Source: Candidatus Woesearchaeota archaeon
Lineage (GTDB): Archaea; Nanobdellota; Nanobdellia; Woesearchaeales; GW2011-AR4
Length of the DNA: 64,000 bases
Direction of reading: 5' to 3'
NCBI GenBank assembly: GCA_016181305.1
Contig: JACOZN010000010.1
Coordinates: 133,242 to 197,241 of the forward strand
Positions 6,725-63,075 of this stretch are shown piece by piece (position 1 is the stretch's first letter; every line of letters starts with the position of its first letter). The notes under the pieces are model-generated. The model saw only the letters and a program-made list of their open reading frames with translations. It searched no databases and was not told the DNA's origin. Made by a program: the position numbers and the translations under genes.

Positions 6725-7576
6725 ATGAAAATCTCTGTCTCATTGCTGTCAAGCTACCTGTACTGCTCCAGAAAGCTGTTTTTAGAGCAGGTATTGCTGT
6801 TGAAAGAGCCTCCAAAGGAAAGCCTTGTGCTTGGCTCTATAAGGCATGAAACATATGACAATATAAACAAGGCAGAAGAAGCAATTGTCACTTCAATAGC
6901 GAAAAAGACGCCTCTTGCAGGCCTTGAAGTGATGTACAGGCAGAAATACCTCCAGATTCTAAGGCAGGCTATAGCCAACAACAGGCATAGGCTTGAAGAT
7001 GTGAGTATGGGCATGCTGGATGCATACAGGAGAAGCTCTGCCTTTATAAGCGACGAGTCAATGACAAGGGCAAGCAACATCTTCAGCTTCATAGAATCAA
7101 ACAACGTTTTTGGAGATGAATTATGGCAGAGGCTGGAGCCAAAGATACTGTCAGAGCTCAGGGTTGAGTCAGAAACTCTGAGGCTAAAGGGCATAATTGA
7201 CCAGGTTCATGTTTATAATGGTGAATACGTGCCTTTTGAGCTGAAAACAGGCAGGACTCCAAATGACGGAGTATGGCCTTCTCATAGAATACAGCTTGCA
7301 GCCTATTCATTGCTTTTGCAGGAGCGCTTCAAAAAGCCAGTCAAGGAAGGCTTTGTTGTTTACCTTGACACCAAGGAAAAGAGGCACATTGCAATAAACC
7401 CTTACATGAAAGAAGAGGTAACCCAAATAGTAAATGAAATACTGGAACTGCTGGAAAGCAGGGAACTGCCTGATTTTTGCAATAATGAAAACAAGTGCAG
7501 GAAGTGCGGATTAGAGGCTACTTGCTATAATGAAGAGGAGGTAAATAATCTGCTGAAAATCAAGGTACAATCCTAA
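6725..7576 (+). CDS. Cas4/RecB-family PD-(D/E)xK nuclease with a Fe-S cysteine cluster (stand-alone)
   Basis: Four motifs are present: YLYCSRKLFLE N-terminal Cys motif, IDQV...FELKTG (D...ExK), QLAAY, and C-terminal CNNENKCRKCGLEATC. Confidence 0.7.
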   Translation: MKISVSLLSSYLYCSRKLFLEQVLLLKEPPKESLVLGSIRHETYDNINKAEEAIVTSIAKKTPLAGLEVMYRQKYLQILRQAIANNRHRLEDVSMGMLDAYRRSSAFISDESMTRASNIFSFIESNNVFGDELWQRLEPKILSELRVESETLRLKGIIDQVHVYNGEYVPFELKTGRTPNDGVWPSHRIQLAAYSLLLQERFKKPVKEGFVVYLDTKEKRHIAINPYMKEEVTQIVNEILELLESRELPDFCNNENKCRKCGLEATCYNEEEVNNLLKIKVQS

Positions 7577-7985: not shown

Positions 7986-8867
7986 GTGAAAAGAGTAAAA
8001 GCCTTTGTCGAGCAGCAGAATCTGCCTCATTTGTTGTTTGCAGGGCCTGCAGGAGTCGGCAAGACAAGCCTGTCATTAGTCATTGCAAAAAAGCTGTTCA
8101 AGGACTTGTGGCACCAGAATTTTCTTGAGCTGAATGCATCTGATGAAAGGGGCATTGACATCATAAGAAACAAGGTAAAGGACTTTGCGAGGACAAGGGC
8201 CATAGGCAATGTTCCTTTCAAGATAATTTATCTTGACGAGTGCGATGCATTGACGAGAGAGGCCCAGCAGGCTTTAAGAAGGACAATGGAGAACTACACC
8301 CAGACATGCAGGTTTATCTTGTCTGCAAATTACTCCTCAAAAATAATCGAGCCCATACAAAGCAGGTGCGTTGTTTTCCGCTTTAAGCAGCTGGACAAAA
8401 AAGACATCATTGAAATCATTGAAAAGATTGCAAAGGACGAGAAATTAAAAATTGACGAGAAGGCAAAAGATGCATTGTATGAGATTTGCGAAGGAGACTG
8501 CAGGAAGCTGGAAAACATCCTGCAAAGCTCTGCTGCAATTGCAGAGCACATAACAGAGGATTTGGTGCATTCAATGGCTTCAGTGGCAAAGCCAAAAGAG
8601 ATAAGGGATGTCTTGGAGCTTGCATTGAGCAACAAATTCATTGACGCAAGGAACAAATTGCTTGGTCTGATGCTGAGCTATGGGTTGGCCGGCATTGACG
8701 TAATAAAGCAGATACAAAAGGAAATTTTGGATTTAGGCATAGACAACAAAGCCAAGATGATTCTGATAGAGAAATGCGGCGAAATTGAGTTCAGGATGAC
8801 AGAAGGCTCTGATGAGTTTGTGCAGCTGGAAGCCTTGCTGAGCCAGTTTGCCCTTGTCGGGAGTTAA
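7986..8867 (+). CDS. rfcS: replication factor C small subunit (clamp loader)
   Basis: Walker A GPAGVGKTS, DEAD-like YLDECD, SRC motif and LEALLSQFALVG C-terminus. GTG start. The frame is open upstream and still matches RFC (IKGQKEIVKR), but there is no ATG and no PWVEKYRP box. Confidence 0.85.
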   Translation: MKRVKAFVEQQNLPHLLFAGPAGVGKTSLSLVIAKKLFKDLWHQNFLELNASDERGIDIIRNKVKDFARTRAIGNVPFKIIYLDECDALTREAQQALRRTMENYTQTCRFILSANYSSKIIEPIQSRCVVFRFKQLDKKDIIEIIEKIAKDEKLKIDEKAKDALYEICEGDCRKLENILQSSAAIAEHITEDLVHSMASVAKPKEIRDVLELALSNKFIDARNKLLGLMLSYGLAGIDVIKQIQKEILDLGIDNKAKMILIEKCGEIEFRMTEGSDEFVQLEALLSQFALVGS

Positions 8868-9880
8868 GGGGCATCAGCCAGGTGCTTTATCAAAACCTTT
8901 TTTTCTTTGCTGTCCAGAATGTTGTAAGTCAGCAGTATTCCCATTGTCTTTTCCAGATCAAGCCTGTCTGACACCAGGTCAGCTGTGCATGTTACTGTTC
9001 TCTTGTTGCCAACAAGCTTTACAACGCCCTCAAAGCTGTTGTCCAGGCCCCCGCACTTGAGATTTGTCACAACAGGGTCAACAGGTATCTCGAGCAGCTC
9101 GACTCCCACATTGTTTTCAATCTCCCTCCTCATCCTTGGGTCGCGCGGGCATGCAGCGTCAAAGCCGCTTGAGGGTGTTCTCTTATCCCTGCTCCAGAAT
9201 ATGTCTACATTCCCGTTTAAAGAAATGTCAAAGCTGAAAGTAATCTTGTCCTTGCCTACAACGCTCTGCCTGAAATTTGACACCTGCACAGGCGCTGAAG
9301 AGCTGTATACTGTCCTTGTCGAGGTTGGTTTGCATATTGCATTGTCCCTCACGTTTATCATGTCCTTTAGCATGCACAGCTTTGTGTTGGCTTCTGTCCT
9401 GTAGTTGTAGCAGGCATCTGCCCTGAAAGTGAATTCTGTGTTGCCGCTGAATTTCCTCGGCACGAAGCTGTCGCCGCCTTTCGGGAATGTGACAAATGTA
9501 GTTGTTCCTTCCACTATATTGCCTTCTGCATCCCTTTTTCTGGATTCCAATGTGTCTTCCGGCTGGTTGTCGGACAAGTCAGAGAATGTCTTGCCAAAGT
9601 CGTTTGGGTCAAATCCTACTAGGTTGACCCTTATGGCATTGCTGTCAACTTTGAACTCGCCGTCATTCTTAAGCTTTACAATGACGTTAAACGCGAACGA
9701 AGAGTCGTCAGTTACTTCGGGGGGCGGGCTGTCTTTCTCAAAATCCATTGTAATGCCTGCTGTCCCGCCTATGAAAGGGGTCCTTGGCGCTCCTCCTGTT
9801 GCAGCGCCGCTTTTCTTGCAGGCAGAAACTAAAAGAATTAAACAGATAAGCAATGCAATGACATAATACTTCTTATTCAT
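8864..9880 (-). CDS. secreted lipoprotein-like protein, paralog 1 of 3
   Basis: Signal peptide plus a Cys lipobox-like site (LVSACKK). Shares G(T/S)EG..F....PPP, ACYNY..E..KLC and SAPVQV blocks with 9948..11180 and 11177..12244. Confidence 0.6.
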   Translation of the reverse strand: MNKKYYVIALLICLILLVSACKKSGAATGGAPRTPFIGGTAGITMDFEKDSPPPEVTDDSSFAFNVIVKLKNDGEFKVDSNAIRVNLVGFDPNDFGKTFSDLSDNQPEDTLESRKRDAEGNIVEGTTTFVTFPKGGDSFVPRKFSGNTEFTFRADACYNYRTEANTKLCMLKDMINVRDNAICKPTSTRTVYSSSAPVQVSNFRQSVVGKDKITFSFDISLNGNVDIFWSRDKRTPSSGFDAACPRDPRMRREIENNVGVELLEIPVDPVVTNLKCGGLDNSFEGVVKLVGNKRTVTCTADLVSDRLDLEKTMGILLTYNILDSKEKKVLIKHLADAP

Positions 9881-9947: not shown

Positions 9948-11180
9948 TTAATCCGCATATCTTGTACATTGATTTGTTGTTTTATCGAACTCGAGGCAAA
10001 TGTCGGTTTCCCCGCTTGGTAAAGGCTGGCCTTCATATGACGGGCTTGGTGATGTGCTTGCCCCGCCTGAAGAAACACCTGTATCCGTGCTGCTAACGCC
10101 AGTCACCTCCCTCTTTATCTGAATTTTTTTCTCTATTGTTGTCCTATAAACATAAGACAGTTTGATTTCTAAAGGGGTTATATAAGCTGTTTTGCTAGAA
10201 CTGTACTCGTTCCTTGGTAGCTCACAAATTATTGAACCTTCGCTGTTCTGAATAAGTTTTATGAAACCTGACTGGGATTTAACCTGCCCATCAACGAATG
10301 GGCTGCATTGCAATGGCTTGTTGCTTACTTTCACATTTATTAAATAAACCTTGTCTACATCCTCTCTTTGTAGCTTGCTATCGCCAAAAGGGTTGCACTT
10401 GTCTTCCCCTAATACGTACGGCTTGAGCACGTCCCCATTGCCAACATTCTTTATTGTTATCCTAAACTGAGTTTTTGTGGCAAATGCTTCTTCATTGACT
10501 GCTGTAACAGCTACCGGAGCGCCTTGGTTGGATAATGCAGTATCCTTTACTTCGCAAACCTTTTTTTCCTTTATTGTTGAGTAAGGATTGGGGTCAATGC
10601 AAACTGATGGGTTTGCAGTTGTCTGGTACTCATAGCATGCAGTCGCTTGTATCACTGGTTCGTATTTCTCAACATTTAAATTCTCAGCAATTACCCTTCC
10701 TTTGAAAGTTGCAAAATCCAACCCTCCATTTGGGTTGATTGAAGTTTTTCCCTCCAGTGTTTTTCTGCTCAAATCTTCAATTGGGGGCTTAGGCTCAAAA
10801 AAATCCAATATGTTTGGGTCGTAGCCGCCTAGATAGATTTTGCCGTGAAGCCCAAATGGCTCAAAACCGCTGCCCTCTCCAAATTCCGGATACGCTCCCT
10901 TGTTCCTTACTTCCATAACGACATCAAACCTGTTCAACTCTGAGTCTGCACCTTTCTCAACATGAATCCTTTCAGGCGGGTTATTTGGGAGAAAGCTCAT
11001 AGCAAGCCCTTCTGTTCCAACTCTCAGCTCCTCCAGTGTTTTAGTTGTGCTGCTTTTTCCCACTTTGCCGCATGCAGAAATTAACACCAAAACGACAAAG
11101 AATGCTGCAAATAATGCCTTTTTTCCCAATTTTACCACTCTTTTCCAAATCCCGAACTTTTTGTATATAAATCTTATCAA
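9948..11180 (-). CDS. secreted lipoprotein-like protein, paralog 2 of 3
   Basis: Signal peptide with ISACGK. ATACYEYQT..VCIDPN and GAPVAVTAV blocks align with the neighbouring paralogs. Confidence 0.6.
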   Translation of the reverse strand: MIRFIYKKFGIWKRVVKLGKKALFAAFFVVLVLISACGKVGKSSTTKTLEELRVGTEGLAMSFLPNNPPERIHVEKGADSELNRFDVVMEVRNKGAYPEFGEGSGFEPFGLHGKIYLGGYDPNILDFFEPKPPIEDLSRKTLEGKTSINPNGGLDFATFKGRVIAENLNVEKYEPVIQATACYEYQTTANPSVCIDPNPYSTIKEKKVCEVKDTALSNQGAPVAVTAVNEEAFATKTQFRITIKNVGNGDVLKPYVLGEDKCNPFGDSKLQREDVDKVYLINVKVSNKPLQCSPFVDGQVKSQSGFIKLIQNSEGSIICELPRNEYSSSKTAYITPLEIKLSYVYRTTIEKKIQIKREVTGVSSTDTGVSSGGASTSPSPSYEGQPLPSGETDICLEFDKTTNQCTRYAD

Positions 11181-12244
11181 TATTTTATCGGCTTCTGTAT
11201 TAAAAATGTGTCAGCAATAGTCTGCACGTAGCCATAGTCTATCTCAATTCTTAAAGGCGATGAAAAGGCATCGTCTGTTTTCTTGATGCCGTCCTTGAAA
11301 GTGCACCTTACAAAGTCCTTCTTGTCCCTGAACCTTACGAAGCCTGCAATCTTGTCAGGGTTGTTCTCGTTTTCAGGGCACTGCCCGTCTATATTCGGGC
11401 AGCATACAAGCTGGATGCCCCTGTCGCCGACTCCCTTGCCGGATGTGTAAGCCCTCAAAAAAGCGACATTCCATGCATTTTTTATTTCGTCTTGGGTTAA
11501 TGGGCTTGCATCCACAATTGCTGGGTCTTTCACGCATAGCCTCTGGAAACTATTTATGTTTGCAGAACTGCCTTTTCCCTTGTTTTCCACAAATATCAAA
11601 AACTGCGGCTTTATTATATCGCCTTCAGGAATCATCTGCGGCTCTATCCTTGTGACAGCAATTGGAGCGCCCTGCCCTGTATTGAATGGAATCTCCTTGA
11701 CTTTGCAAGCCTTTTTGCTCGGTCTTAGCTCCCCGATGTCAGGGTCAATGCATACTGTAGTGCTTAGAAGTGTCTGATACGGATAGCATAAAGTGGCTGT
11801 TATTGTTGACTCCTTGTTCTCGCTCTGGGGGTCAAGCTTAGCTGTCTTTGCTGTAATGGCTGCAATTAACTCATCCCCTTTTGGGTTAATTTTTGTCTTT
11901 CCTTCTACGCCAAAAAGCAGTATGTCACCACGCTGCCCCATTTTCGGGTTTGGCTCGAGAGTTATTTCAGGTACATAGTCTTTTTCCCTGCCGATAGCCA
12001 GAATTCCTGCTCTTGATACGCCTACACTGTATGCACCTTTGTTTCTTATCTTTATCAGTATAGGAAAGCTGCTTTGCTCAAAGACTCTTGGAGGAGGTGC
12101 TGTTTTTGAGAATTCCGCAGTCAATCCCTCTGAGCCTACATAGACATTGACTTGGGCTGATTTTGAGGTGGTTGTGGAGGTGGAGCAGCCTATAATCATT
12201 AAAAATAAAGATATTAAGGCTATTAGCATGATTTGTTTTTTCAT
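11177..12244 (-). CDS. secreted lipoprotein-like protein, paralog 3 of 3
   Basis: Signal peptide with IIGCST. ATLCYPYQT..VCIDPD and GAPIAVTRI blocks. 4-bp overlap with the downstream paralog. Confidence 0.6.
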   Translation of the reverse strand: MKKQIMLIALISLFLMIIGCSTSTTTSKSAQVNVYVGSEGLTAEFSKTAPPPRVFEQSSFPILIKIRNKGAYSVGVSRAGILAIGREKDYVPEITLEPNPKMGQRGDILLFGVEGKTKINPKGDELIAAITAKTAKLDPQSENKESTITATLCYPYQTLLSTTVCIDPDIGELRPSKKACKVKEIPFNTGQGAPIAVTRIEPQMIPEGDIIKPQFLIFVENKGKGSSANINSFQRLCVKDPAIVDASPLTQDEIKNAWNVAFLRAYTSGKGVGDRGIQLVCCPNIDGQCPENENNPDKIAGFVRFRDKKDFVRCTFKDGIKKTDDAFSSPLRIEIDYGYVQTIADTFLIQKPIKY

Positions 12245-12250
12245 TTTAGC

Positions 12251-15200
12251 TTAAGGTATTGTAATATTGGGGGTTTCAACTGAGCCATAAATATTATCAT
12301 TGTTATCAACTGCATAAATAAGGTACGAGTATGTTAAACCTGATTTTATGCCAGAGTCCTTGTAGGAATTCTGTTCTGTATAGAAAGAATCCTCGCTATT
12401 GCCTTCACGGTACCTTGTTATAAGGTATTTAGTCGCCTTTTGGTTTTCTGATTTGCTCCACTTGATTAGCACTATATGGTTTGAACTATCGTACGTAGCT
12501 TCCGGATTGGCTAAAGTGGGTGTTTGTAGTTGTTCACTTGGAATGTACTCTATCTTCAATTGATTTCTTAAGGTATTGTAAGCAGCTATCACTTTTTTTA
12601 CATATTCCCTAGTGTTTGTTTTTCTGTCCGTACTCCAGCAATTGTCTGGATTCAGATAGTAAAACCCATGAACTGTGTCTGAATTCATTGCCTTTTCTCC
12701 ACAATTGTAACCAGCAGCAATAACGCTCAGATCTGCCGGTAAGTTTTTGTTTTTTTGTATATCAATAAGATATTTTATATATTTTACACCACAATCTACA
12801 TTTGATTCAACGTCTTTGTTCCAATCAGTGCAGCCTAAACCCTGTGCAGTAGGTGTAAGTACCTGCATTAAACCGTAAGAGCCTCCTTTTTTTGCATCGC
12901 CAAAAGTGGTTGGATTCCAAGCTGCATTCTCCGTATGTATTATAGCTTTTACAAACAAGTAATCAACAAGGTATTTTTTTGCTATTCCAAACACAATTGG
13001 GCTATATTTAATTTCATTTTGATTGGCTTTGCTGAAAAAAATGTCTGCATATTTCTGATCAGAAATTTGAGCATCATAATCTGGAGTTCTTTTTTCCTCT
13101 AGCGTAGGCGCCTGCTCGACAGTAACAGGCACCTGCGACTCAACAAGATAATCATACCTAGCCCTTATCCTGATGAATTTTGTTGTTATGGGCGCGTTTT
13201 CCAGAACATCATTTTTGTTTAGGTTAAGCCTGCAGGAGAATGTAAGGAACCTGCCGCTTTCAATGTCCCTGAATTGCTCTTTGTCGCCTCGTCTTTTAAT
13301 GTCCTCGACTGCAAGCTGGTAGCCGGTGTACTCCTCAGCGCCAATCTCACTTTTGAAAAGGTTGTCGCAGTCATCATTGCATTTCTTGACTGAAGTGTCG
13401 CAGTTGAAAATACACTGCTGGTCGCTTTTGTCGCATATGTCTAGACAAGGTTGGCGGACTTTATCCTCGCATGATTTTGAGCAGTCTTCCTTTGAGAAAG
13501 GCTTGAACCTTACAGGCCTGCAGGTTTCCAGATTTTCCGGATTGATTGTGATGCCTTTCGGCACAACGACATTAAGCTCTTTAATCTCCTTTATTTTCCC
13601 ATTCCACTTCCCGACAGGATTGCCCTTGCTGTCTGTTATTTTGCCCCTGTTTGTGAGGGTTATGAACAACGCCGGGCTGGTGCCCTTGTCAGAAACCGAT
13701 ATAAGGCTTTGTATTCCTACTCCAATCTCAACAGGCCCATTTGTGGATATTGACTTGGGTGTTCTGTCTGCTATGCCAAATTCCTTTAATGGGTCAAGGT
13801 TTTCCCTTATCATGGCGCGATGCCTTTCAGCGTCAATGAAGTAAACTTTTTGGTAGGATATTGTAGGGAAATTATATGTGGCGGAAAGAATAAGGGTGTT
13901 TGCTCCAGCCTGAAGCTTGTTTTTGCTGAATGTGCACTCAACATCCTTCTCCTCAAGTGTATAGACTGTGAATTGCTTGTCGGGAATTACAATGTCCTTG
14001 GTTTCAGCAGTTCCAGTCTTATCAGCTTCTATCGGCTTGTTGTCCTTGAACCTAAAGCATGTAAACTGGACATTGACAGGGTCGCTCAACGTCCTTGACT
14101 TTATAGTGCCCCATATTGTAACAGGCTCGTCTGTATAGAACCTTGGCTGTGCAGGCTTAACCCTGTCAAAAACAACTCCAAGAGGCTCAAACTGGTTTTT
14201 CTCGACAAAGCCCATATACTGGTCCGAAATCAATCCGCCTGTTGCATAGTCAATTGACTTGCCTGCAGCTCTTGCTACACCAACCCCAAAATTTGAAATT
14301 GATTCCAAAATGCCGCCCAAAAAACCTTTTGCGCCTTGCGTTGCCTCTGCCCTTTCGAATGAGGTGCCTTCCTCAGAGCTTTCTGCTATGGTTGGAGAAA
14401 AGATTATGAAGAACACCATGGCAATCACCAGCAAAAAAAGGTTGCCTCTTGCGAATTTGCTTCCGGTGAACTGCGCCAGATAATAAGAGCTTATAAGCAC
14501 CAATATCGGGAAATATGACAGAACAACGTTGCCAAAATTCAGGCTGTAAAGGAAGAAATCACCAACTAAAAAGAGGGATGTAAATATATAGAGCTGGCTT
14601 TTGTTGATTTGCGGCTGAAAATAGAGGTAAAAATAGAATCCAATTATGAATATTACATGCAACACTGCTTTTACATCCTTTGTCCAGCTCCAGTTTATGA
14701 AAAAAAAGGAGAATGTTAAAGCCATTACAGCATAGCAAAATGTTTCTGAAGCGACATAATCATATCCATTACGATGCAATACCACCAAGCCTATTACGGC
14801 TAAAACAGCAAGCACTATAATACTAAAGTAAGGGATTGTTACGTTAGCAAACTCTAACCTGTAATAAATCCTGGAGTACAGCAATGCAAGTGCCATGAAT
14901 GCGCCAAAAAAAACAAATTGCCTGTGGGGCTCAAACATATTAGTCATGATACTCCACGCCAAAAATGCCACAATAGCGCCAGATGTGACAACTGCATACC
15001 AGTTTGTTTGAGTGATAAGTAAAGTTGAGAAATTAAAGCCGATATAACGTCCGCCAAAATAAGGTGTTAAGTCAAAGCCCCAAATCATGTAAGCAAATAT
15101 TATTATGATGATTGGTCCCCAGCCTGCTGTCTCTTTTCCGGTATTAACCACTATGTTTGGATTTATGGGGCTGCCACCATATGCTGTAGCAGAAGATTTC

Positions 15201-15499
15201 TTAGGTTGTTCGTCTGATTTCCCAAAAAATCCCCTTGCTTTTCCAGCAACCCTTCCTAATTTTGAGGTATATGGCTCATCTTCTCTCTCCAATCGCTCCA
15301 TTCTTTTTTGAATTTGATTTTCTCTCTCCTCATTTTCTGCTTCTTTTCTCTTAGCCCCCAATCTTTCTCTGGCTCTTTCTAATATCTCTGCTTCCCTTGC
15401 TTCGGCTTCCTTCTGTCTTCTTGTTCTATCTCTATCCGTCCTGCTTACACCAGCCGCCTCTAATTCTCTATCTTCTTCTGTTTCAGTATCATAAGCCAA
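12251..15499 (-). CDS. large polytopic membrane protein with an extracellular family-1 lytic transglycosylase (SLT) domain and a C-terminal FN3-like domain
   Basis: 1082 aa. Charged coiled N-terminus, then about 8–10 TM helices. A Cys-rich segment (CSKSCEDK..CLDICDK..CIFNCD..CNDDCD) is present. The SLT motifs are IIHTENAAWNP...GGSYGLMQVLTPTA...AAGYNCG; compare E. coli Slt70 ESAWNP...GASGLMQIMPGTA...AYNAG. A C-terminal FN3-like beta-sandwich follows. Confidence 0.75.
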   Translation of the reverse strand: MAYDTETEEDRELEAAGVSRTDRDRTRRQKEAEAREAEILERARERLGAKRKEAENEERENQIQKRMERLEREDEPYTSKLGRVAGKARGFFGKSDEQPKKSSATAYGGSPINPNIVVNTGKETAGWGPIIIIIFAYMIWGFDLTPYFGGRYIGFNFSTLLITQTNWYAVVTSGAIVAFLAWSIMTNMFEPHRQFVFFGAFMALALLYSRIYYRLEFANVTIPYFSIIVLAVLAVIGLVVLHRNGYDYVASETFCYAVMALTFSFFFINWSWTKDVKAVLHVIFIIGFYFYLYFQPQINKSQLYIFTSLFLVGDFFLYSLNFGNVVLSYFPILVLISSYYLAQFTGSKFARGNLFLLVIAMVFFIIFSPTIAESSEEGTSFERAEATQGAKGFLGGILESISNFGVGVARAAGKSIDYATGGLISDQYMGFVEKNQFEPLGVVFDRVKPAQPRFYTDEPVTIWGTIKSRTLSDPVNVQFTCFRFKDNKPIEADKTGTAETKDIVIPDKQFTVYTLEEKDVECTFSKNKLQAGANTLILSATYNFPTISYQKVYFIDAERHRAMIRENLDPLKEFGIADRTPKSISTNGPVEIGVGIQSLISVSDKGTSPALFITLTNRGKITDSKGNPVGKWNGKIKEIKELNVVVPKGITINPENLETCRPVRFKPFSKEDCSKSCEDKVRQPCLDICDKSDQQCIFNCDTSVKKCNDDCDNLFKSEIGAEEYTGYQLAVEDIKRRGDKEQFRDIESGRFLTFSCRLNLNKNDVLENAPITTKFIRIRARYDYLVESQVPVTVEQAPTLEEKRTPDYDAQISDQKYADIFFSKANQNEIKYSPIVFGIAKKYLVDYLFVKAIIHTENAAWNPTTFGDAKKGGSYGLMQVLTPTAQGLGCTDWNKDVESNVDCGVKYIKYLIDIQKNKNLPADLSVIAAGYNCGEKAMNSDTVHGFYYLNPDNCWSTDRKTNTREYVKKVIAAYNTLRNQLKIEYIPSEQLQTPTLANPEATYDSSNHIVLIKWSKSENQKATKYLITRYREGNSEDSFYTEQNSYKDSGIKSGLTYSYLIYAVDNNDNIYGSVETPNITIP

Positions 15500-15617
15500 T
15501 TTACTCCACCATTTTTGCTTTACTCATTTTTGTCGTTAAAATAACTCAACCTAAAGAATTCTTCCCAACCACCTCTTGTTTTTAAGCAATTTAATTTAAA
15601 TAAAATAAGCATTATAA

Positions 15618-16802
15618 CTAAGCCAGTCTGACTCTTAACTCAGCGACTTCTATGTCTTCCAGCGGCTCAAGCCTTACGAAGTTGTTGCCTTCTGAAACCC
15701 TGCCGTTGATGTTTTTTGTGAATGACATCTTGTCCGTCTCCACAGTGTCTATGTGCCCGTTGATGTCCATTTTTATTCTTTTCTTTTTCTGGCTGTCTGT
15801 GAACTTCAATGTGACTTCGATGTTTACATCCCCGTCCCTTATCTGCGTGAAGGTTGCCGGCTTTACCTCAAAATAGTATGTTCTGGATGAAGCATCATTA
15901 AACTCAAGGGCTATGCCGATCTGCTCAACGCTGTAGCTGCCCTTGCTTGTCTTGAAAACAACATTGTTCTCGCCTTGGTTTAGGGCGCTTTTCGGTATGC
16001 TCTGCCTGTACGCGTCATTGCACTTCGGCACAGAGGAGAACAGCTTCTTGTTGTTTATGAAAATGTCCAAAGTTCCAAGCTGGTTTACATTGCCGCAGTA
16101 TGGCACGAACTTGAGCGTTGCCTTTTCCATGCTTGCGAACTCCGGATCGCTCAATACGAATAGGTTTGTGGATTCCTGCCTGCTTGTGTCTGTTATGTCA
16201 CCTATTATCCTGATATTCTCAAAGCTGTACTCGTTCGTAGTCCAGAATCTTGCCCCTACAGACGAAACGCTGAACTCGAGAGAATTCTGCTTCATGAGCA
16301 GCTTCTTGTCCAGCTTGACAGGCTCGACAATCTCGGATGCAATCTCATTCTCAAAAACAATCACATTGTTGAGCTTTATTTCAAGAACACCTTTCCTCTT
16401 CTTGGCTGCGAAAGACAAAACAACATTGTCTGTATTGTCAATGTCCTCGATAACAAAGTCTATATTCCTTGTTTTTTTGTCAAACCACCCGTTCCTTACT
16501 ATAAAAGGGTTTATCTTTTCTAAATCCTTTGCGTTGGTTGTCTCAACCAAGAATATGTTGGGGATTTTTTTCTCGCTCTCCATGCTCCTTGACGTGCTCA
16601 ATGCCCCTGGGCTTGCCTGCAGCAGGATGTTCGGGCTTTCCCCTAGCGCGGGCTCCGGCTGCTTCTTTTCAATCAGCTTTTCCCTCTCTCCTGAAGGCAG
16701 AAATACGATGTAAAGAATTATAAGGCCTGCTATTATTGCAACTAAAACAGCGGCGTTCATGCCGCCTTGGGCTTTATTTTGCATCACAACACCTTTTTTC
16801 AC
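15618..16802 (-). CDS. membrane-anchored extracellular protein (first gene of the surface-protein operon)
   Basis: N-terminal TM anchor (AAVLVAIIAGLIILYIVFL) followed by an extracellular region of about 350 aa. No recognised family. Confidence 0.5.
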   Translation of the reverse strand: MKKGVVMQNKAQGGMNAAVLVAIIAGLIILYIVFLPSGEREKLIEKKQPEPALGESPNILLQASPGALSTSRSMESEKKIPNIFLVETTNAKDLEKINPFIVRNGWFDKKTRNIDFVIEDIDNTDNVVLSFAAKKRKGVLEIKLNNVIVFENEIASEIVEPVKLDKKLLMKQNSLEFSVSSVGARFWTTNEYSFENIRIIGDITDTSRQESTNLFVLSDPEFASMEKATLKFVPYCGNVNQLGTLDIFINNKKLFSSVPKCNDAYRQSIPKSALNQGENNVVFKTSKGSYSVEQIGIALEFNDASSRTYYFEVKPATFTQIRDGDVNIEVTLKFTDSQKKKRIKMDINGHIDTVETDKMSFTKNINGRVSEGNNFVRLEPLEDIEVAELRVRLA

Positions 16803-27258: not shown

Positions 27259-28272
27259 ATGATTGTAGTGATGAAAAAGAATGCAACCGAAAACCAGGTG
27301 CAAAGAGTGGTTGAGAAGATACAGGAAAGCGGCTTGAAAGCGCACCTGTCGAAAGGAGATATAGTGACAATAATAGGGATTATAGGCGATGAAAGGAAAG
27401 TCCCGGAGTCGCAGATAAGGGCGATAGAGGGTGTGGAGAAGATTATGCCTGTGCTCGCCCCCTACAAGCTTGCAAGCAGGGACTTCAAGCCCGATAACAC
27501 AATAATAAGCGTTGACGGGGTCAAAATCGGCGGCAATGAGGTTGTTGTGATGGCAGGCCCCTGCTCTGTTGAAAGCAGGGAGCAGATTATAGAAACTGCT
27601 AAAGCCATAAAAAAATCAGGGGCAAAAGTATTAAGAGGCGGCGCATTCAAGCCAAGAACATCGCCTTATTCCTTCCAGGGCTTGGGAGAGGAAGGGTTAA
27701 AATTGCTGAAGCATGCAAAGGAGGAAACAGGCATGCCGATAGTAACAGAGGTAATGGACACCAGAAACGTGCCTTTGGTGTGCAAGTATGCTGACATCCT
27801 GCAGCTTGGCGCAAGAAACATGCAGAATTATGACTTATTAAAGGAAGTCGGAAGGTGCAAGCGCCCTGTTTTATTAAAAAGAGGGCTTTCAGCTACAATA
27901 ACAGAATGGCTCATGAGCGCAGAATACATAATGTCAGAGGGCAACCATAACATAATTTTGTGCGAGCGTGGCATAAGGACATTTGAAACTCTTACAAGAA
28001 ACACTCTGGACCTGAATGCAGTGCCTGCTGTAAAGGAGCTAACACATTTGCCGGTTATAGTCGACCCAAGCCATGGGACTGGAAAGTATACTTTGGTCAG
28101 CCCGATGGCTAAAGCTGCAGTTGCCGCAGGAGCAGACGGGCTATTAATTGAAGTCCATACAAATCCTGAAAAATCAGTCAGCGATGCCGACCAAACCATA
28201 AGCACAAAAAGATTTGAGAATCTCATGAGAGAGCTAAAGCTTATAGCAAGCGCAATAGGAAGAAAGGTGTAA
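27259..28272 (+). CDS. aroG: 3-deoxy-7-phosphoheptulonate (DAHP) synthase, type I-beta with an N-terminal ferredoxin-like regulatory domain
   Basis: KDO8P/DAHP synthase core with GPCSVES, KPRTSPYSFQG and DPSHG. The N-terminal extension of about 80 aa resembles the Thermotoga-type allosteric domain. Confidence 0.85.
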   Translation: MIVVMKKNATENQVQRVVEKIQESGLKAHLSKGDIVTIIGIIGDERKVPESQIRAIEGVEKIMPVLAPYKLASRDFKPDNTIISVDGVKIGGNEVVVMAGPCSVESREQIIETAKAIKKSGAKVLRGGAFKPRTSPYSFQGLGEEGLKLLKHAKEETGMPIVTEVMDTRNVPLVCKYADILQLGARNMQNYDLLKEVGRCKRPVLLKRGLSATITEWLMSAEYIMSEGNHNIILCERGIRTFETLTRNTLDLNAVPAVKELTHLPVIVDPSHGTGKYTLVSPMAKAAVAAGADGLLIEVHTNPEKSVSDADQTISTKRFENLMRELKLIASAIGRKV

Positions 28273-28273
28273 G

Positions 28274-29362
28274 ATGGAAGTTGTAAAAGTTGATTTGAGG
28301 GAAGAGATAGACAACTCTTATGATATCACCATCGGCAGGGGCTTATTGGAAGGCCTTGCCATGGAACTAAAAAAAAATCCCGCAAATAAGTTTGTGATAA
28401 TAACGGACTCCAATATTGCAGGAACCTATGGCAAAAGGCTCCTTAACGATTTGAAGAAGAGGAATATTGGCGCACATTTGATAAATTTTCCCGCAGGAGA
28501 GAAAAGCAAGACAAGAAAAACAAAAGAAAAGATAGAAAATGAAATGCTTAAGCTTGCTTTAGGAAGGGATGCCTGCATCATTTCTCTTGGAGGCGGTGTT
28601 GCAGGGGATATTGCCGGGTTTGCAGCGGCAACCTACATGAGGGGAATTCCGTACATTCAGGTGCCTACAACCTTGCTTGCAATGGTTGACAGCTCCATAG
28701 GGGGAAAAGTTGCCGTTGATACTATGCATGCAAAAAACGCAATAGGCTCATTCTACCAGCCAAAAAAAGTTGTCGTTGACCTGAATTTCCTTAAAACACT
28801 GCCAAAAAAAGAGTTGGTGAACGGGCTGGCAGAGCTGATAAAGCATGCCCTGATAAAAGACAGGGGTTTTTTCCATTTTATAGAAAAAAACATCGGCGGG
28901 ATTCTGGCCTGTGATGCGGACATTTTGAAGACTGCGATAAAAAGGAGCTGCGAGATTAAAGCGGATATTGTGATGCAGGATGAAAAGGAAAAAGGAATTA
29001 GAAGAATCCTCAACTACGGGCATACAATCGGGCACGCTATTGAATCCTCATTGGGCTACAAAATAAGCCACGGCAATGCTATTGCCATTGGAATGGGCTA
29101 TGCTGCAAAGCTTTCCGCCAAGCTTGGTTTTCTGCATGAAGGCTCTGTTATAAGGCAGAATAACCTGCTGGAATACATAGGACTGCCGCATAAGTTAAGC
29201 CATCACAAGCTAAAGCCCAGGAAGATACTTGAGCATATACAATACGATAAAAAAATAACGAACGGCAGAATAAATTTTGTATTGCTGAATTCCATAGGAG
29301 ATGCATTTGTCTCTGATGATGTCGCGATAGAAGACATTAAAAATATTCTTGAAGAACGATAA
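28274..29362 (+). CDS. aroB: 3-dehydroquinate synthase
   Basis: GGGVAGDIAGFAAATYMRGIPYIQVPTTLLAMVDSSIGGK motif block. Confidence 0.9.
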   Translation: MEVVKVDLREEIDNSYDITIGRGLLEGLAMELKKNPANKFVIITDSNIAGTYGKRLLNDLKKRNIGAHLINFPAGEKSKTRKTKEKIENEMLKLALGRDACIISLGGGVAGDIAGFAAATYMRGIPYIQVPTTLLAMVDSSIGGKVAVDTMHAKNAIGSFYQPKKVVVDLNFLKTLPKKELVNGLAELIKHALIKDRGFFHFIEKNIGGILACDADILKTAIKRSCEIKADIVMQDEKEKGIRRILNYGHTIGHAIESSLGYKISHGNAIAIGMGYAAKLSAKLGFLHEGSVIRQNNLLEYIGLPHKLSHHKLKPRKILEHIQYDKKITNGRINFVLLNSIGDAFVSDDVAIEDIKNILEER

Positions 29363-29363
29363 A

Positions 29364-30827
29364 ATGCTGGCAGCTGTAATAACAGAACTCAAAGACATTC
29401 CAAAAGCAAAAGATGCCGATTTGATAGAGCTGAGGCTGGATTATATAAAAGGATTGAATAATACAAAGCTAAAAAGCTTGATAGAAAACTGCAAGAAACC
29501 TGTAATTGTGACGAATAGGAAAAAGGGCGAAGGCGGCCTCTTTAATGGAAGCGAGGCAAAAAGAATTGAAATATTAAAAAATGCTATTAAATTTGGTGCA
29601 GGCTATGCTGATATTGAATATTCTTCAGGTAAAGAATCTATAAGAAATTTAATCCAAAATAAAAGGAAAACAAAGATAATTGTCTCTTACCATAATTTTA
29701 AAGAAACGCCGGCAAATATCAAAAAGATCTACGGCAATATCAAGAAATTAAATCCTGACTTGATCAAAATAGCCACTAATGCGCGCTCTGTCACTGACAA
29801 CTTCAGGGTATTCGGCTTAATCGGGAAAGCGAATAAAGAGAAAAGGAAAATAATTGCTTTCTGCATGGGAGGCTATGGAAAATTCAGCAGAATCTTAAGC
29901 ATAATTCTCGGCTCGCAGGTAACTTATGCGTCAACCGGCAAAGGAAAAGAATCCGCAGGCGGGCAATTAACAATGAATGAGATGGTTGAGCATTATAGAA
30001 TTAAAAAAATAAATAAAAACACTAAAATTGTCGGCTTGATAGGAAATCCCGTTGAACATTCCTGGTCGCATATAATGCATAATGCCGCTTTTGATAGATT
30101 AGACATTAATGCAGTTTATCTGAAATTTCAGGCAGATAAGCTGAAAGAGTTTATTGAACACATGAAAAATCTGGATATAATCGGCTTTAGCGTCACAATC
30201 CCGCATAAAGTTGAAGTTATGAGATATCTTGATGAGATAGACAAACAAGCGAAGGGGATTAGCGCAGTCAATACTATTGTTGTGAAAAACGGCAGATTAA
30301 TTGGGTACAATACAGACTGCCCGGGAGCCATAAAATCATTGAAGCGAATAACAGAATTAAAAGGAAAGAATGCTGTTGTCTTAGGTGCAGGCGGGGCAGC
30401 AAGGGCAATAATTTATGGTTTGATGGAGAATAAATCAAATGTTAAGATATTGAACAGGACTGCTGAAAAAGCAAAATTATTAGCTGATTATTTCAAGTGC
30501 GATTATGGCTCTTTAGATGATATTAAAAAAACTGATTATGATATTCTAATTAATACCACCCCTGCCGGAATGCACCCGCACATAGGCGGCTCCCCTGTTC
30601 CGCCCGACTGCATCAAAAACGGCGCTGTTGTTTTTGACATGGTTTTTAACCCTTACAAGACAAAATTGCTTGTTGAAGCTGAAAAGAGGAATTGCAGAAT
30701 AATTGCCGGGTTTGAGATGCTGATTCACGGGGCTCTGCTGCAATTCAAGCTATGGACCGGAAAAGAAGCCCCAGAGCGATTAATGCGGCTAAAAGTTATG
30801 GAGTTTTTAAAAAATGCTGGCCATTAA
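29364..30827 (+). CDS. bifunctional 3-dehydroquinate dehydratase (type I) / shikimate 5-dehydrogenase fusion
   Basis: N-terminal half has the type-I DHQase architecture. C-terminal half has the SDH motifs GLIGNPVEHSWS and GAGGAARA. The ATG at 29364 follows the aroB stop; the track start at 29349 is TTG. Confidence 0.85.
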   Translation: MLAAVITELKDIPKAKDADLIELRLDYIKGLNNTKLKSLIENCKKPVIVTNRKKGEGGLFNGSEAKRIEILKNAIKFGAGYADIEYSSGKESIRNLIQNKRKTKIIVSYHNFKETPANIKKIYGNIKKLNPDLIKIATNARSVTDNFRVFGLIGKANKEKRKIIAFCMGGYGKFSRILSIILGSQVTYASTGKGKESAGGQLTMNEMVEHYRIKKINKNTKIVGLIGNPVEHSWSHIMHNAAFDRLDINAVYLKFQADKLKEFIEHMKNLDIIGFSVTIPHKVEVMRYLDEIDKQAKGISAVNTIVVKNGRLIGYNTDCPGAIKSLKRITELKGKNAVVLGAGGAARAIIYGLMENKSNVKILNRTAEKAKLLADYFKCDYGSLDDIKKTDYDILINTTPAGMHPHIGGSPVPPDCIKNGAVVFDMVFNPYKTKLLVEAEKRNCRIIAGFEMLIHGALLQFKLWTGKEAPERLMRLKVMEFLKNAGH

Positions 30828-32070
30828 AACAAAAAAATATGTCAAAGCTGTGATTGAAGCGCCGCCATCAAAAAGCTATACCCAGAGGGCTTTGGTGATT
30901 GCAGCTCTTGCCAACGGCAAATCAGTTATAAAAAACCCGTTATTCAGCGACGACACCTGCCATATGATTTCTGCGTTGAAAGCGTTTGGGGCAAGGATAG
31001 AGAGAAAAGGCAGCAGCCTTGCTGTTTACGGAACAAACGGAAAGCTCAAGCAGCCAAAAGGCAGGATTTTTGCAGGGAATGCAGGCACGACAATGCGGTT
31101 CATAACAGCTTTTGCCTCCCTTGCTGACGGGGCTTCTGTAATAACAGGAGACAAGAGGATGCAGCAACGTCCAATAAACGACCTGCTTGATGCACTGCGG
31201 CAATTAGGGGTGAAAAGCGAAAGCAGCAGCGGATGCCCGCCTGTAAAGATTTACGGGGGAAATTTTATCGGCGGAACTGCGAAATTAAAAGGCAGCATAA
31301 GCAGCCAGTATTTATCATCCATTCTTATGGTTGCGCCATACGCCGAAAAGGATGTAAAAATAAGCATTACGGGGAACCTGGCATCAAAGCCGTATGTTGA
31401 CATAACCATAGATGTCATGAAGAATTTTGGAGTTGACATAAAAAATGTAAAATATGAAAAATTTATAATAAAAAACACCAAAAAATACAAATCTGGGGAT
31501 TATGCTGTTGAGGGCGACGCCTCGAGCGCGAGCTACTTCTTTGCAGCAGCTGCCGTGACAAAAGGAAGAATAATGGTAAAGAATATAAACCCCAAATCAA
31601 AACAGGGAGATATAAAGTTTGTTGACATACTAAAAAGAATGGGGTGTGGCGTAAGGAATGGAAACAGCTTTATCGAGGTGCAGGGTGGCAGCCTCAAAGG
31701 CGTTGATGTTGACATGAACGAGATGCCTGATATCGTGCCTACACTTGCTGTGACGGGCCTTTTTGCAGATTCGGCAACCACAATAAGAAATGTGCCCAAC
31801 CTGCGGCTGAAGGAGACTGACAGGCTTAGGGCCCTGGCGTTTGAACTTAGAAAGACAGGCGCCAATGTGGAAGAAATGCAGGACGGATTGCGTATAAAAA
31901 GAAGAAGGCTGCAAAAAGCGATAATTGAAACTTATAATGACCACAGGATGGCAATGAGCTTTGCCGTAGCGGGCTTGGTTATCAATGGGATAAGGATAAA
32001 AAACCCAGGCTGCGTTGCAAAATCATTTCCTGATTTTTGGGAAAAATTCAACGAGATGTATAAAAGATGA
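30814..32070 (+). CDS. aroA: 3-phosphoshikimate 1-carboxyvinyltransferase (EPSP synthase)
   Basis: PPSKSYTQRAL, GNAGTTMRF and RMAMSFAVAG motifs. Confidence 0.9.
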   Translation: MLAIKTKKYVKAVIEAPPSKSYTQRALVIAALANGKSVIKNPLFSDDTCHMISALKAFGARIERKGSSLAVYGTNGKLKQPKGRIFAGNAGTTMRFITAFASLADGASVITGDKRMQQRPINDLLDALRQLGVKSESSSGCPPVKIYGGNFIGGTAKLKGSISSQYLSSILMVAPYAEKDVKISITGNLASKPYVDITIDVMKNFGVDIKNVKYEKFIIKNTKKYKSGDYAVEGDASSASYFFAAAAVTKGRIMVKNINPKSKQGDIKFVDILKRMGCGVRNGNSFIEVQGGSLKGVDVDMNEMPDIVPTLAVTGLFADSATTIRNVPNLRLKETDRLRALAFELRKTGANVEEMQDGLRIKRRRLQKAIIETYNDHRMAMSFAVAGLVINGIRIKNPGCVAKSFPDFWEKFNEMYKR

Positions 32071-32576
32071 ATATAGCGCTTATAGGCTTCAGGGGAACTG
32101 GCAAAACAACCTTATGCAGGCTGCTTGCCAACAGGCTCGACAGGAAGCTCATATCAACAGACGAGGAAATAGAGAAGAGAACAAAAATGAGCATAGCCAA
32201 GTTTGTGAAAAAATACGGCTGGGAGAGGTTCAGGGAAATCGAGGCCGATGTTATAGAAAGCATCAGCGACTTTGATGACTGTGTGTTTGACACGGGCGGA
32301 GGCATTATAATGAGGAATGAGAATATTATCAACCTGAAAAAAAACACTTTGATTGTGCTGCTGACTGCTGATATAAAGACAATAACAAGCAGGCTCAAAA
32401 ACAATAAAAGGCCTGCACTGACGAAAAGCAATTACCTTGACGAGATAAAGGATGTACTGAAGGAGCGCGAGGAAAGGTACAAAACAGCAGCGGATTATGC
32501 CATTGACACGTCAAGGCTGGCTCCTGAAGAGGCATGCGATTTGATTATGCACTATGTGCAGATGGAGATGCAATAA
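32067..32576 (+). CDS. aroK: shikimate kinase, bacterial AroK/AroL (P-loop NMP-kinase) type
   Basis: GFRGTGKTT Walker A and about 170 aa. This is not the GHMP-type shikimate kinase typical of archaea. Confidence 0.8.
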   Translation: MNIALIGFRGTGKTTLCRLLANRLDRKLISTDEEIEKRTKMSIAKFVKKYGWERFREIEADVIESISDFDDCVFDTGGGIIMRNENIINLKKNTLIVLLTADIKTITSRLKNNKRPALTKSNYLDEIKDVLKEREERYKTAADYAIDTSRLAPEEACDLIMHYVQMEMQ

Positions 32577-32578
32577 AA

Positions 32579-33661: not shown

Positions 33662-34497
33662 TTTCTATGGTTACGGTAGGCATAATCGGCGGCACCGGGC
33701 AGATGGGGCAGTTTTTCAGGAGATTTTTTGAGAAGAACAAATGCAGGGTTTTGATTGCCTCGAGAAAAACAAAATTAAAGCCGGAAGACTGCGCAAGGCA
33801 AAGCGATGTTGTTTTGGTTTCTGTGCCGATGGATGTGACTGTGGGAGTAATCAAAAAAATAGCCAGTTGCATCAGCAAGAATTCCCTGCTGATTGATACA
33901 ACCTCCATTAAAAACGAGCCTGTCAAAGCCATGCTTAAGCATGCAAAATGCGAAGTTATAGGGATGCACCCTGTTTTTGGGCCGAATGTAAATTCATTGA
34001 GGAGCCAGACTGTTGTTTTGTGCCCGGCAAGAACAAAAAAATGGCTGCAGTGGCTGAAAGGCATTTTCGAGAGAAATGGCGCAAGGGTGAAATTATCAAC
34101 TCCTGAAAAGCATGACGAGATGATGTCTGTAATACAGGGCTTAAATCACTTCAGCACCTTAAGCGTTGCCCATGCCATGAAGATGCTTGGCATAAGCGTG
34201 AAAGAAAGCCTGGAATACACAAGCCCGGTTTACAGGCTTAGGATGGCTATGGTCGGCAGGATATTAAAACAGGACCCAAACCTGTACGCAAGCATAGAGA
34301 TGATGAATCCAAAAAACAAAGATGTGCTAAAAGCTTATGCAGAATCCTCAAAAAAGCTCAGGAGTATAATTGAAACAAAAGACACAAAGGCATTTTTGGA
34401 GTATTTTAACGAGTGCTCTAAGTTTTTTGGCGGCTTTAAAGAAGAGGCTGAGGAATTAAGCGATTACCTGATAGGGCAGATGGTGAAAAGGAAATGA
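33658..34497 (+). CDS. tyrA: prephenate dehydrogenase
   Basis: GIIGGTGQMG Rossmann motif and a PDH fold. The track start is GTG; the ATG at 33667 is also possible. Confidence 0.8.
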   Translation: MISMVTVGIIGGTGQMGQFFRRFFEKNKCRVLIASRKTKLKPEDCARQSDVVLVSVPMDVTVGVIKKIASCISKNSLLIDTTSIKNEPVKAMLKHAKCEVIGMHPVFGPNVNSLRSQTVVLCPARTKKWLQWLKGIFERNGARVKLSTPEKHDEMMSVIQGLNHFSTLSVAHAMKMLGISVKESLEYTSPVYRLRMAMVGRILKQDPNLYASIEMMNPKNKDVLKAYAESSKKLRSIIETKDTKAFLEYFNECSKFFGGFKEEAEELSDYLIGQMVKRK

Positions 34498-63062: not shown

Positions 63063-63075
63063 TGTTATGTTCTCC

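Follow-up and report, generated by a model that had tools for sequence, protein, structure and literature searches.

Large proteins with murein-type lytic transglycosylase domains have been reported from Woesearchaeota and Pacearchaeota, and their owners have been interpreted as episymbionts or predators of bacteria (PMC8204110, PMC9723730, PMC10936187, PMC11537232). A murein transglycosylase on the surface of a DPANN archaeon and aimed at bacteria is a known idea (Castelle 2015; Castelle 2021; Vigneron 2022). The closest descriptions are those of fam00969 (Castelle 2021), AR20 (Castelle 2015) and a GH23 protein (Vigneron 2022), with which the protein presented here shares, by description, the lineage, the domain, a large surface protein and a proposed bacteria-directed role (PMC8204110, PMC9723730). 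It has the features of the fam00969 type: woesearchaeal origin, a length of 1082 aa, an ectodomain of ~640 aa and an SLT domain. In their available sections, these reports give the domain and the hypothesis only, and do not mention a 9-TM scaffold, a five-gene cassette, GH73 heads, a recombination boundary or a membrane triad. In another archaeal lineage, peptidoglycan hydrolases kill bacteria experimentally (Halogranum “Woldo” and “Danwoldo”; PMC12352652). These are likewise archaeal, aimed at murein, modular and subject to domain replacement, and Danwoldo has a PF01832 glucosaminidase, but they are soluble, Tat-secreted haloarchaeal proteins with PG_binding_1, in contrast to the membrane-integral, cassette-borne DPANN protein of the present study (PMC12352652). 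Our additions are a large scaffold family, a five-gene cassette and an exchangeable lytic head, none of which we found described in the accessible literature. Together, the lineage-wide surface cassette, the modular stalk and the swapped lytic head make a concrete, testable object that bears on whether and how DPANN such as Woesearchaeota live on bacteria.

The locus lies within a stretch of 64 kb (the window), and all features named below are on its minus strand. Judged by its genes, the contig is archaeal and belongs to Woesearchaeota. The window encodes PolD DP1/DP2, Cdc6, Pelota, RFC and an archaeal SecY/r-protein cluster, which rules out bacterial contamination of the contig; the product of a gene adjoining the scaffold gene is 100% identical to a protein of “Candidatus Woesearchaeota archaeon” at NCBI, and the homologues of the scaffold and their loci carry the label Woesearchaeota. 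The scaffold gene with its lytic head (12251..15499; stop codon 12251-12253) has a TTG start immediately preceded on the 5´ side by a Shine-Dalgarno-like GGTGGAG, and the encoded N-terminus, MAYDTE, aligns with the MAxD/MPVDTE N-termini of homologues. Residues 1-125 make up a low-complexity, partly helical, charged tail that is predicted to be cytoplasmic (15125..15499) and is hypervariable among relatives; the first 110 residues of the protein include 26 K/R and 27 D/E, and residues 20-73 are helical. A polytopic membrane domain with ~9 predicted TM helices follows (residues 126-368; 14396..15124), and then a juxtamembrane linker (residues 369-441; 14177..14395); conservation within the family is highest at the near-invariant end of this linker, LDYATGG...VEKNQFEPLG. 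The ectodomain, predicted to lie outside and holding many residues that are invariant across the family, begins with two beta-sandwiches, the Ig-like/CARDB-like ECTO1 (residues 442-560; 13820..14176) and ECTO2 (residues 561-800; 13100..13819). Inserted in ECTO2 is a Cys-rich two-helix hairpin (residues 660-715; 13355..13522), locally variable among relatives, whose four CX3C pairs span C673 to C711 and which is probably a disulfide-stapled alpha-hairpin. The charged tail, the TM helices and the Cys-rich ectodomain would place the scaffold in an N-in/C-out topology. This outline agrees with the original prediction of an archaeal polytopic membrane protein from a DPANN-type organism, with a charged coiled N-terminus, 8-10 TM helices and a large extracellular region that includes a Cys-rich module.

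The lytic head consists of an SLT/GH23 domain (residues 812-985; 12545..13066) and a C-terminal FN3 domain (residues 995-1082; 12254..12517). Residues 839-939 match the Pfam SLT profile PF01464 with 41 bits against a gathering score of 21.3 (E 1.7e-10; the best value among 22 family members is 7.4e-19), and the alpha-helical, lysozyme-like fold superposes on solved lytic transglycosylases. The domain had been called a bona fide SLT domain from its motifs, and this stands on both profile and fold. All quoted strings were located, IIHTENAAWNPTTFGDAKKGGSYGLMQVLTPTA at residues 853-885 and AAGYNCG at 928-934. The catalytic Glu, E857 (12929-12931), aligns with that of IMQTESSFNP in MltC and of IISRES in g-type lysozyme. 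Its conservation was checked and amounts to at least 90% of the 22 members, which also keep the GLMQ (G876-L-M-Q879; 12863-12874) and YNxG motifs (here G930-Y-N-C-G934; 12698-12712). The further statement that the motifs match almost residue for residue is correct for the Glu, GLMQ and YNxG, but E-N-A-A-W-N-P has a one-residue insertion relative to the family norm E-S-x-W-N-P, and Asn replaces the Ser that usually follows the catalytic Glu, also in family-1 lytic transglycosylases. This Ser is typical but is not known to be essential. Insertions of the same type occur in P0012, P0016 and P0019, while most family members have E-S. The terminal FN3 is borne out by a seven-stranded FN3 beta-sandwich fold, although the Pfam fn3 profile gave no match at E <= 0.01 and the matches to PDB sequences were weak (1fnf, E 0.026; 3mpc, E 0.18).

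Identity of the head to family-1 lytic transglycosylases (GH23/Pfam SLT; Slt70, MltC and MltE of E. coli and MltF of P. aeruginosa) is only 19-24%. Those enzymes have a lipid anchor instead of a 9-TM domain with an Ig-like stalk, and recycle the wall of their own cell, whereas the head described here presumably attacks foreign walls from an archaeal host without known murein. The best PDB sequence match is a goose-type lysozyme of GH23 (3gxk, E 4e-5 with the family profile), with which fold and Glu are shared; unlike the head, goose-type lysozymes are secreted hydrolases of eukaryotes. Lytic transglycosylases cleave the MurNAc-beta-1,4-GlcNAc linkage non-hydrolytically to leave 1,6-anhydroMurNAc. 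The head would be classed as lytic-transglycosylase-type, its sequence being compatible with this mechanism and with that of g-type lysozymes alike. A word-indexed search with the head alone, aimed at a donor of the SLT module, returned one woesearchaeal fragment.

When clustered at 50% identity, the scaffold family falls into at least 457 clusters. Among 22 close homologues, 12 have a Pfam SLT head and six a Pfam Glucosaminidase/GH73 head, and the rest have divergent, Cys-rich, SLT-like heads. Local head HMMs assigned SLT to 85 and GH73 to 12 of 131 broader members and left 34 unassigned; when eight unassigned members with long tails were rechecked against Pfam, five contained SLT. P0078 is without a recognisable lytic head and has a beta/gamma-crystallin tail instead, and P0155 and P0092 have no recognisable tail domain. 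As these few members have no recognisable head, cutting murein is not the core function of the scaffold.

The lytic head is exchanged as a module, and its swaps recur. Compared with L005, its closest relative, the window operon has a DNA identity of 77-99% outside positions 12206-13086 and of 25-38% inside this segment, which starts at residue ~805 and runs to the stop. The boundary at this residue is sharp, and beyond it L005 carries a GH73 glucosaminidase in place of SLT and FN3. A second pair, P0003 (SLT) and P0024 (GH73), has 79% identity in the ectodomain. SLT and GH73 domains cut different bonds, and the only substrate common to both is the GlcNAc-MurNAc backbone of peptidoglycan, so bacterial murein is the likely target of the head. 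The swap of SLT for GH73, the other class of enzyme that cuts the glycan strand of murein, between close relatives is also why we favour a bacterial wall over another glycan, and no argument from sequence has yet spoken more strongly for a bacterial peptidoglycan target. We consider it very unlikely that the heads are lectin-like modules that bind murein with little or no catalysis, the stalk merely gluing the archaeon to bacteria. In favour of such a role, adhesins typically contain FN3 and Ig-like domains, E-N stands in the window protein where E-S is usual, and the catalytic Glu is replaced by Asp in the GH73 head of P0017; against this, the Glu is retained with GLMQ and YNxG at the frequency given above, and almost every member, whether its head is SLT or GH73, has preserved the catalytic signature.

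This type of exchange is reminiscent of CdiA-CT/Rhs proteins and phage tail-fibre tips, in which the C-terminal module of a conserved delivery scaffold is recurrently swapped at a sharp boundary. The likeness is one of shared logic and not of homology, as CdiA-CT/Rhs proteins have no sequence relationship to the scaffold, and their modules are intracellular toxins rather than murein glycosidases. The variable head is not followed by a cognate immunity gene, and none may be needed since the cell would be murein-free; the next gene encodes a conserved lipoprotein paralogue with 89-97% identity between loci with SLT and GH73 heads. On contact, phage lytic tail proteins use their enzymatic activity to open murein locally. 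With phage-tail murein hydrolases and with VirB1, EtgA and CwlT, the present system shares the principle of a glycosidase fixed to an apparatus for a local breach at the point of contact, and the head swap suggests a determinant of host range comparable to phage tail tips. Matches to the PHROG families “lytic tail fiber/lytic tail protein” are confined to the head, which also matches EtgA. The other machine parts of the phage, T3SS and T4SS systems are absent here, where the cassette is chromosomal and, as far as sequence comparison indicates, syntenic and vertically inherited. A viral, mobile-element or defence origin was considered and rejected: PHROGs match the head only, PADLOC gave one marginal match, and the synteny with housekeeping genes argues against mobility.

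The scaffold is always the second gene of a strictly conserved cassette in the order n394, scaffold and three to four lipoprotein paralogues. This order is intact in ~9 distinct genomes, with two distant members in addition, and the cassette is a conserved feature of Woesearchaeota that seems to be restricted to them. Within it, variation is concentrated in the lytic head, and the scaffold is conserved. The product of the first gene, n394 (15618..16802), has a beta-rich ectodomain and, at its N-terminus, a motif with a hydrophobic helix. The motif, [KR]-[GAS]-Q-G-G-x-N-A-A, and the following IAGLIILY are conserved and form a candidate class III/pilin-like signal or a signal anchor; positions +2 to +4 (G-G-M) depart from the usual hydrophobic class III pattern, and no prepilin peptidase or assembly ATPase was found close to n394. 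The third to fifth genes encode lipoprotein paralogue 1 (11177..12244; lipobox IIGC), paralogue 2 (9948..11180; lipobox LISAC) and paralogue 3 (8864..9880). Neither n394 nor the lipoproteins have relatives in Pfam, NCBIfam or PDB; two sub-threshold matches of n394 are lectin-like (Sialidase N-terminal and CBM-like, E 0.003). The lipoproteins share “xYxY” terminal strands and RNKGAY-type motifs with the ectodomain, but an hhalign probability of 0.3% gave no support for paralogy at the level of sequence, and a comparison of n394 with the ectodomain was also negative.

In all genomes examined, the neighbours of the cassette are housekeeping genes (Pelota, RFC, acetyl-CoA synthetase), and its partner proteins vary less than is usual in proteins that interact with a host (n394 has 62-73% identity over 593 clusters). 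This conservation and this neighbourhood would fit a core envelope function too. One possibility, which we regard as unlikely, is that the cassette builds or remodels the surface of its own cell and that the head trims an endogenous GlcNAc-containing glycan, which might belong to a wall polymer, a capsule or a glycan layer, e.g. in growth or division. The presence of the cassette in every related genome examined, the invariant residues of the ectodomain, the scaffold members that lack a lytic head and the inclusion of chitin-active enzymes among GH23 folds (3w6b) are in line with this. However, we know of no murein-like or chitin-like wall in Woesearchaeota, and the annotated genes of the window include none for murein synthesis and none for the synthesis of any other endogenous wall polymer. 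A fixed polymer of the cell's own would not predict a swap of glycosidase class, with breakage of different bonds, between operons that are up to 99% identical. In addition, the literature regards murein transglycosylases as foreign to archaea (PMC8204110).

The reading that we favour, and hold to be moderately probable on these comparisons, is that the scaffold is the central part of the cassette and that its membrane-tethered, murein-cutting head acts locally on a bacterium that touches the archaeon. The 9-TM domain would anchor a stalk of two Ig-like sandwiches and the stapled helical hairpin, at the distal end of which an exchangeable enzymatic head, here GH23/SLT followed by FN3, is presented. 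Tethered to the archaeal membrane, the enzyme would reach only ~15-20 nm from the surface, a distance that we infer together with the topology. The most likely substrate would be the glycan strand of bacterial peptidoglycan, which would be cut at the site of contact between archaeon and bacterium, and opening or loosening of the sacculus may then lead to attachment, feeding or lysis. Contact with a partner or prey would be required; to our knowledge, no woesearchaeon has to date been cultured with a bacterial host. We give little credence to nutritional scavenging, or to a general antagonism that needs no particular partner, in which murein debris or neighbours are degraded and muropeptides or amino sugars imported, possibly aided by the polytopic domain. 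The enzymatic evidence is the same for both readings, a lifestyle described as “vampiristic” or recycling has been suggested for GH23-bearing Woesearchaeota (PMC9723730), muramoyl-tetrapeptide carboxypeptidases are reported from related Pacearchaeota (PMC11537232), and the conserved polar triad of the membrane domain could be part of a channel or transporter. Nevertheless, a tethered enzyme of short reach is poorly suited to a dispersed polymer, head swaps look more like determinants of target range than like digestive enzymes, and no genes for amino-sugar catabolism or transport were found in or adjoining the cassette.

Going beyond contact-dependent murein cutting, the cassette may be an undescribed envelope machine that serves Woesearchaeota as an organelle for contact with, or feeding on, bacterial hosts, and in which the head breaches murein, the membrane domain is an enzyme or a conduit for host-derived material, and head exchange sets the host range; we put this forward as speculation that is more likely wrong than right by a wide margin. 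An apparatus for transfer of DNA or protein, with a VirB6-like channel and a VirB1/CwlT-type hydrolase that clears murein for the conduit, seems highly improbable. The cassette is chromosomal and syntenic rather than carried by a mobile element, and in sequence the TM domain resembles neither VirB6/TrbL nor any Pfam family. In the loci with annotated flanking genes (the window, L001, L003, L005/L006 and L015), neither the cassette nor its surroundings contain a VirB4/VirD4/FtsK-type ATPase, a relaxase or any further T4SS component. For experimental work, the analysis defines two soluble constructs, the head (residues ~805-990) and the ectodomain (residues 436-800), and flags a conserved, membrane-embedded Asp-His-Asp site, made up of D143 (15071-15073), H281 (14657-14659) and D314 (14558-14560), all three predicted to be at the outer membrane face.

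The open reading frame of the scaffold protein, 1082 codons at 12251-15499 on the minus strand, begins with a TTG codon that is preceded by a Shine-Dalgarno-like GGTGGAG and aligns with the MAxD/MPVDTE starts of its homologues. All the sequence strings quoted in the original prediction, which proposed an archaeal polytopic membrane protein with SLT and FN3 domains, were found in its translation. The DNA is archaeal, as had been claimed, based on the PolD DP1/DP2, Cdc6, RFC, Pelota, and archaeal SecY/ribosomal-protein block genes inside the window. Names on the scaffold homologues and their loci are Woesearchaeota or Nanoarchaeota, and the product of a gene adjoining the scaffold gene matches a 'Candidatus Woesearchaeota archaeon' protein at NCBI with 100% identity.

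The full-length protein was modelled with AlphaFold2 from an alignment of 21 homologues (mean pLDDT 72). The model has a charged helix (residues 20-73), disorder up to residue 125, and approximately nine transmembrane helices (residues 126-368), followed by an amphipathic linker of low confidence, a confident beta-rich ectodomain (residues 442-795), a helical domain (residues 812-982), and a C-terminal beta-sandwich (residues 1000-1080). An N-in/C-out topology agrees with hydropathy and charge distribution and places all 16 cysteines past the membrane domain on the outside. The sole Pfam domain is SLT (PF01464; residues 839-939, 41 bits, E 1.7e-10; gathering score 21.3). When the family profile was compared with PDB sequences, the family motif 'IQKES' aligned with IISRES of g-type lysozyme and IMQTESSFNP of MltC, and by this alignment E857 is the predicted catalytic Glu of the head. 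Conservation of this residue was among the checks named in the original prediction, and it is retained in at least 90% of 22 aligned members. GLMQ (residues 876-879) and GYNCG (residues 930-934) are likewise present, but in one respect the protein departs from the original description: its E-N-A-A-W-N-P has a one-residue insertion compared to the E-S-x-W-N-P of most relatives. A head that acts as an adhesin without catalysis appears highly improbable.

The cassette consists of five tightly packed genes in the same orientation. Second among them is the scaffold gene, preceded by n394 (15618-16802, minus strand), a gene for a candidate pilin-like protein, and followed on the same strand by three lipoprotein genes (11177-12244, 9948-11180, and 8864-9880), the products of which have lipobox-type signals and are mutually paralogous (BLASTP 1e-28 to 1e-12). 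The same order was seen in every related locus fetched, from approximately nine distinct genomes, with SLT and GH73 heads alike, and is also kept in two distant members, P0078 and P0139, the latter a protein of 1470 aa in a locus with four lipoprotein paralogues. Synteny extends to the flanks, where genes for Pelota, acetyl-CoA synthetase, TrmB, and transketolase border the cassette at one end and those for the RFC small subunit, a PRC-barrel protein, and a Cas4-like nuclease at its other end. From the conserved order and flanking genes, the cassette is judged to be chromosomal and vertically inherited. The n394 family comprises 593 clusters, none of them annotated, of uniform length (~388 aa) and 62-73% identity among Woesearchaeota/Nanoarchaeota, and shows higher conservation than the lytic protein does. 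At its N-terminus, a hydrophobic helix comes after the conserved motif [KR]-[GAS]-Q-G-G-x-N-A-A, and the two look like a candidate archaeal class III (prepilin-type) signal. Searches of Pfam, NCBIfam, PHROG, and PDB sequences gave no relative of the four partners. The Cas4/PD-(D/E)XK nuclease (6725-7576, plus strand) is a stand-alone gene; neither a CRISPR array nor further cas genes were seen, and in the loci L001, L003, and L005 its synteny with RFC and the cassette is maintained. Three loci titled 'uncultured Methanosarcinales archaeon' (L008, L009, and L014) carry the Woesearchaeal cassette with an ectodomain identity of 54-62%; the bins behind them are probably taxonomically mislabelled.

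In the 22 proteins of ~900-1180 aa from the initial homology search, conservation is highest not in the enzyme domain but in the juxtamembrane linker, with the motif LDYATGG...VEKNQFEPLG, and in the two sandwiches, which together contain dozens of invariant residues. The C-terminal domain is variable: Pfam SLT in 12 and Pfam Glucosaminidase (GH73) in six of the 22, and a divergent, Cys-rich SLT-like domain in the others. When 1.84 billion cluster representatives were searched exhaustively with a profile, the family grew to 457 proteins at E <= 1e-30. Local sub-profiles were used to type the heads of the best 160 of these, and among the 131 with complete ectodomains assigned 85 to SLT, 12 to GH73, and 34 to neither. 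Several of the 34 do carry SLT according to Pfam, which found nothing recognisable as a head in two of the rechecked sub-profile-negative members and a beta/gamma-crystallin tail in P0078. FN3 tails are present in a subset of the family only. In P0078 (locus L016, 1462-5523), the crystallin domain takes the place of the murein hydrolase while the n394 and lipoprotein neighbours are kept, and the scaffold thus also serves non-lytic heads.

The exchange of heads is seen in the nearest relative, P0001, which has 79% scaffold identity to the window protein, yet ends in GH73 instead of SLT and FN3. The window operon and the P0001 locus (L005) are 77-99% identical at the DNA level from the first to the last cassette gene, with two exceptions. 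One is the cytoplasmic tail (15163-15700), and the other is the head (12206-13086), where identity is at the random level of 25-38% and is back at 89-97% from the first bases of the gene after the scaffold. The boundary is at approximately residue 805, directly past the final strand of the second sandwich. P0003 (SLT) and P0024 (GH73) form another close pair, with 79% ectodomain identity, and the nearest neighbours of the other GH73 members bear SLT, so that head exchange is, on these comparisons, a repeated event. SLT enzymes cut the MurNAc-GlcNAc bond and GH73 enzymes the GlcNAc-MurNAc bond, and the peptidoglycan glycan strand is what the two have in common. The swap is therefore our main new argument for murein, and not 'another glycan', as the inferred substrate. 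The main rival explanation, in which the cassette does housekeeping work on a glycan made by the archaeon itself, would fit the extreme conservation of the cassette, its housekeeping neighbours, and the scaffold members without a lytic head; we nevertheless consider it unlikely, as the enzyme class is swapped between nearly identical operons. Two segments besides the head vary. The charged tail with its upstream intergenic region (15163-15700, minus strand) is hypervariable between near-identical operons (31-62% DNA identity, many gaps), and tail length across the family ranges from near zero to >200 residues. The second Ig-like domain has an inserted segment (13355-13522, minus strand), predicted to form a two-helix hairpin, that carries four CX3C pairs. 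This predicted alpha-hairpinin-like disulfide staple has a weak PDB match to a vicilin-derived peptide (7uv2), and the segment varies locally, with 52% DNA identity to L005 compared to ~85% around it.

The scaffold protein is thus membrane-integral, with a conserved Ig-like stalk and a lysozyme-fold tip with an intact catalytic signature, and is one of five extracytoplasmic proteins encoded as a conserved set. Our main explanation, held with moderate confidence, is that the tethered head cuts the peptidoglycan of contacting bacteria. Domain sizes suggest that the head could reach ~15-20 nm from the membrane. The archaeon itself presumably lacks murein, and the enzyme would therefore act on bacterial peptidoglycan touching the cell. 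Local cuts in the murein could help the cell to attach, open a way to the bacterial membrane, or lead to lysis, and swapping of heads may adapt the cell to differing walls. Use of the same activity for scavenging or general antagonism is improbable, and a function of the assembly as a transfer apparatus very doubtful.

Across 137 members aligned over their N-terminal parts, no more than five positions of the membrane domain are retained in at least 75%: D143 (124/137), G154 (123/137), H281 (124/137), D314 (Asp in 123, Glu in 12), and P331 (121/137). In the predicted 9-TM topology, D143, H281, and D314 (codons 15071-15073, 14657-14659, and 14558-14560, minus strand) map to the outer ends of TM1, TM6, and TM7, an arrangement that suggests a putative outward-facing catalytic or ion-binding site. 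Profile searches of Pfam, NCBIfam, and PDB sequences found no known family matching this domain.

The working logic proposed for the head is that of phage tail-associated lysins and secretion-machine hydrolases, and its PHROG matches are 'lytic tail' proteins only. Membership in such systems was ruled out because all other components are absent from the loci examined. The original prediction was correct as written, and described an oddity already on record. Passages in Castelle et al., 2021 (PMC8204110; citing Rinke 2013 and Castelle 2015), Vigneron et al., 2022 (PMC9723730), PMC10936187, and PMC11537232 report large extracellular Woesearchaeota/Pacearchaeota proteins with murein-like lytic transglycosylase domains, and suggest binding to, or attack on, bacteria by these archaea. 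In haloarchaea, peptidoglycan hydrolases have been shown experimentally to kill bacteria (PMC12352652). Our literature searches gave no account of a scaffold family with 9-TM and Ig-like parts, of the five-gene cassette, of GH73 as the alternative head, of head exchange with a sharp boundary, or of the conserved membrane triad. The enzyme domain is an ordinary one, and the surrounding apparatus is, going by these searches, undescribed. Through this apparatus, experiments can directly address whether these archaea live on bacteria, and by what means, a question of long standing.

Elsewhere in the window, a complete bacterial-type shikimate/aromatic amino-acid operon (27259-35303, plus strand), likely of bacterial origin, encodes DAHP synthase I, DHQ synthase, EPSP synthase, a bacterial-type shikimate kinase (PF01202), chorismate synthase, prephenate dehydrogenase, prephenate dehydratase, and a fusion of type-I dehydroquinase and shikimate dehydrogenase (29349-30827, plus strand). 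A Swt1-like HEPN protein (62490-63062, minus strand) adjoins a DUF5343 protein (63076-63702, minus strand), and the two (62490-63702) may form a toxin-antitoxin or defence pair. No tRNA genes were found within the 64 kb. The cumulative GC skew has its maximum at ~38-40 kb, where gene orientation switches, and Cdc6 (56198-57493) is directly upstream of PolD DP1/DP2; for these reasons, a replication origin may be close by.
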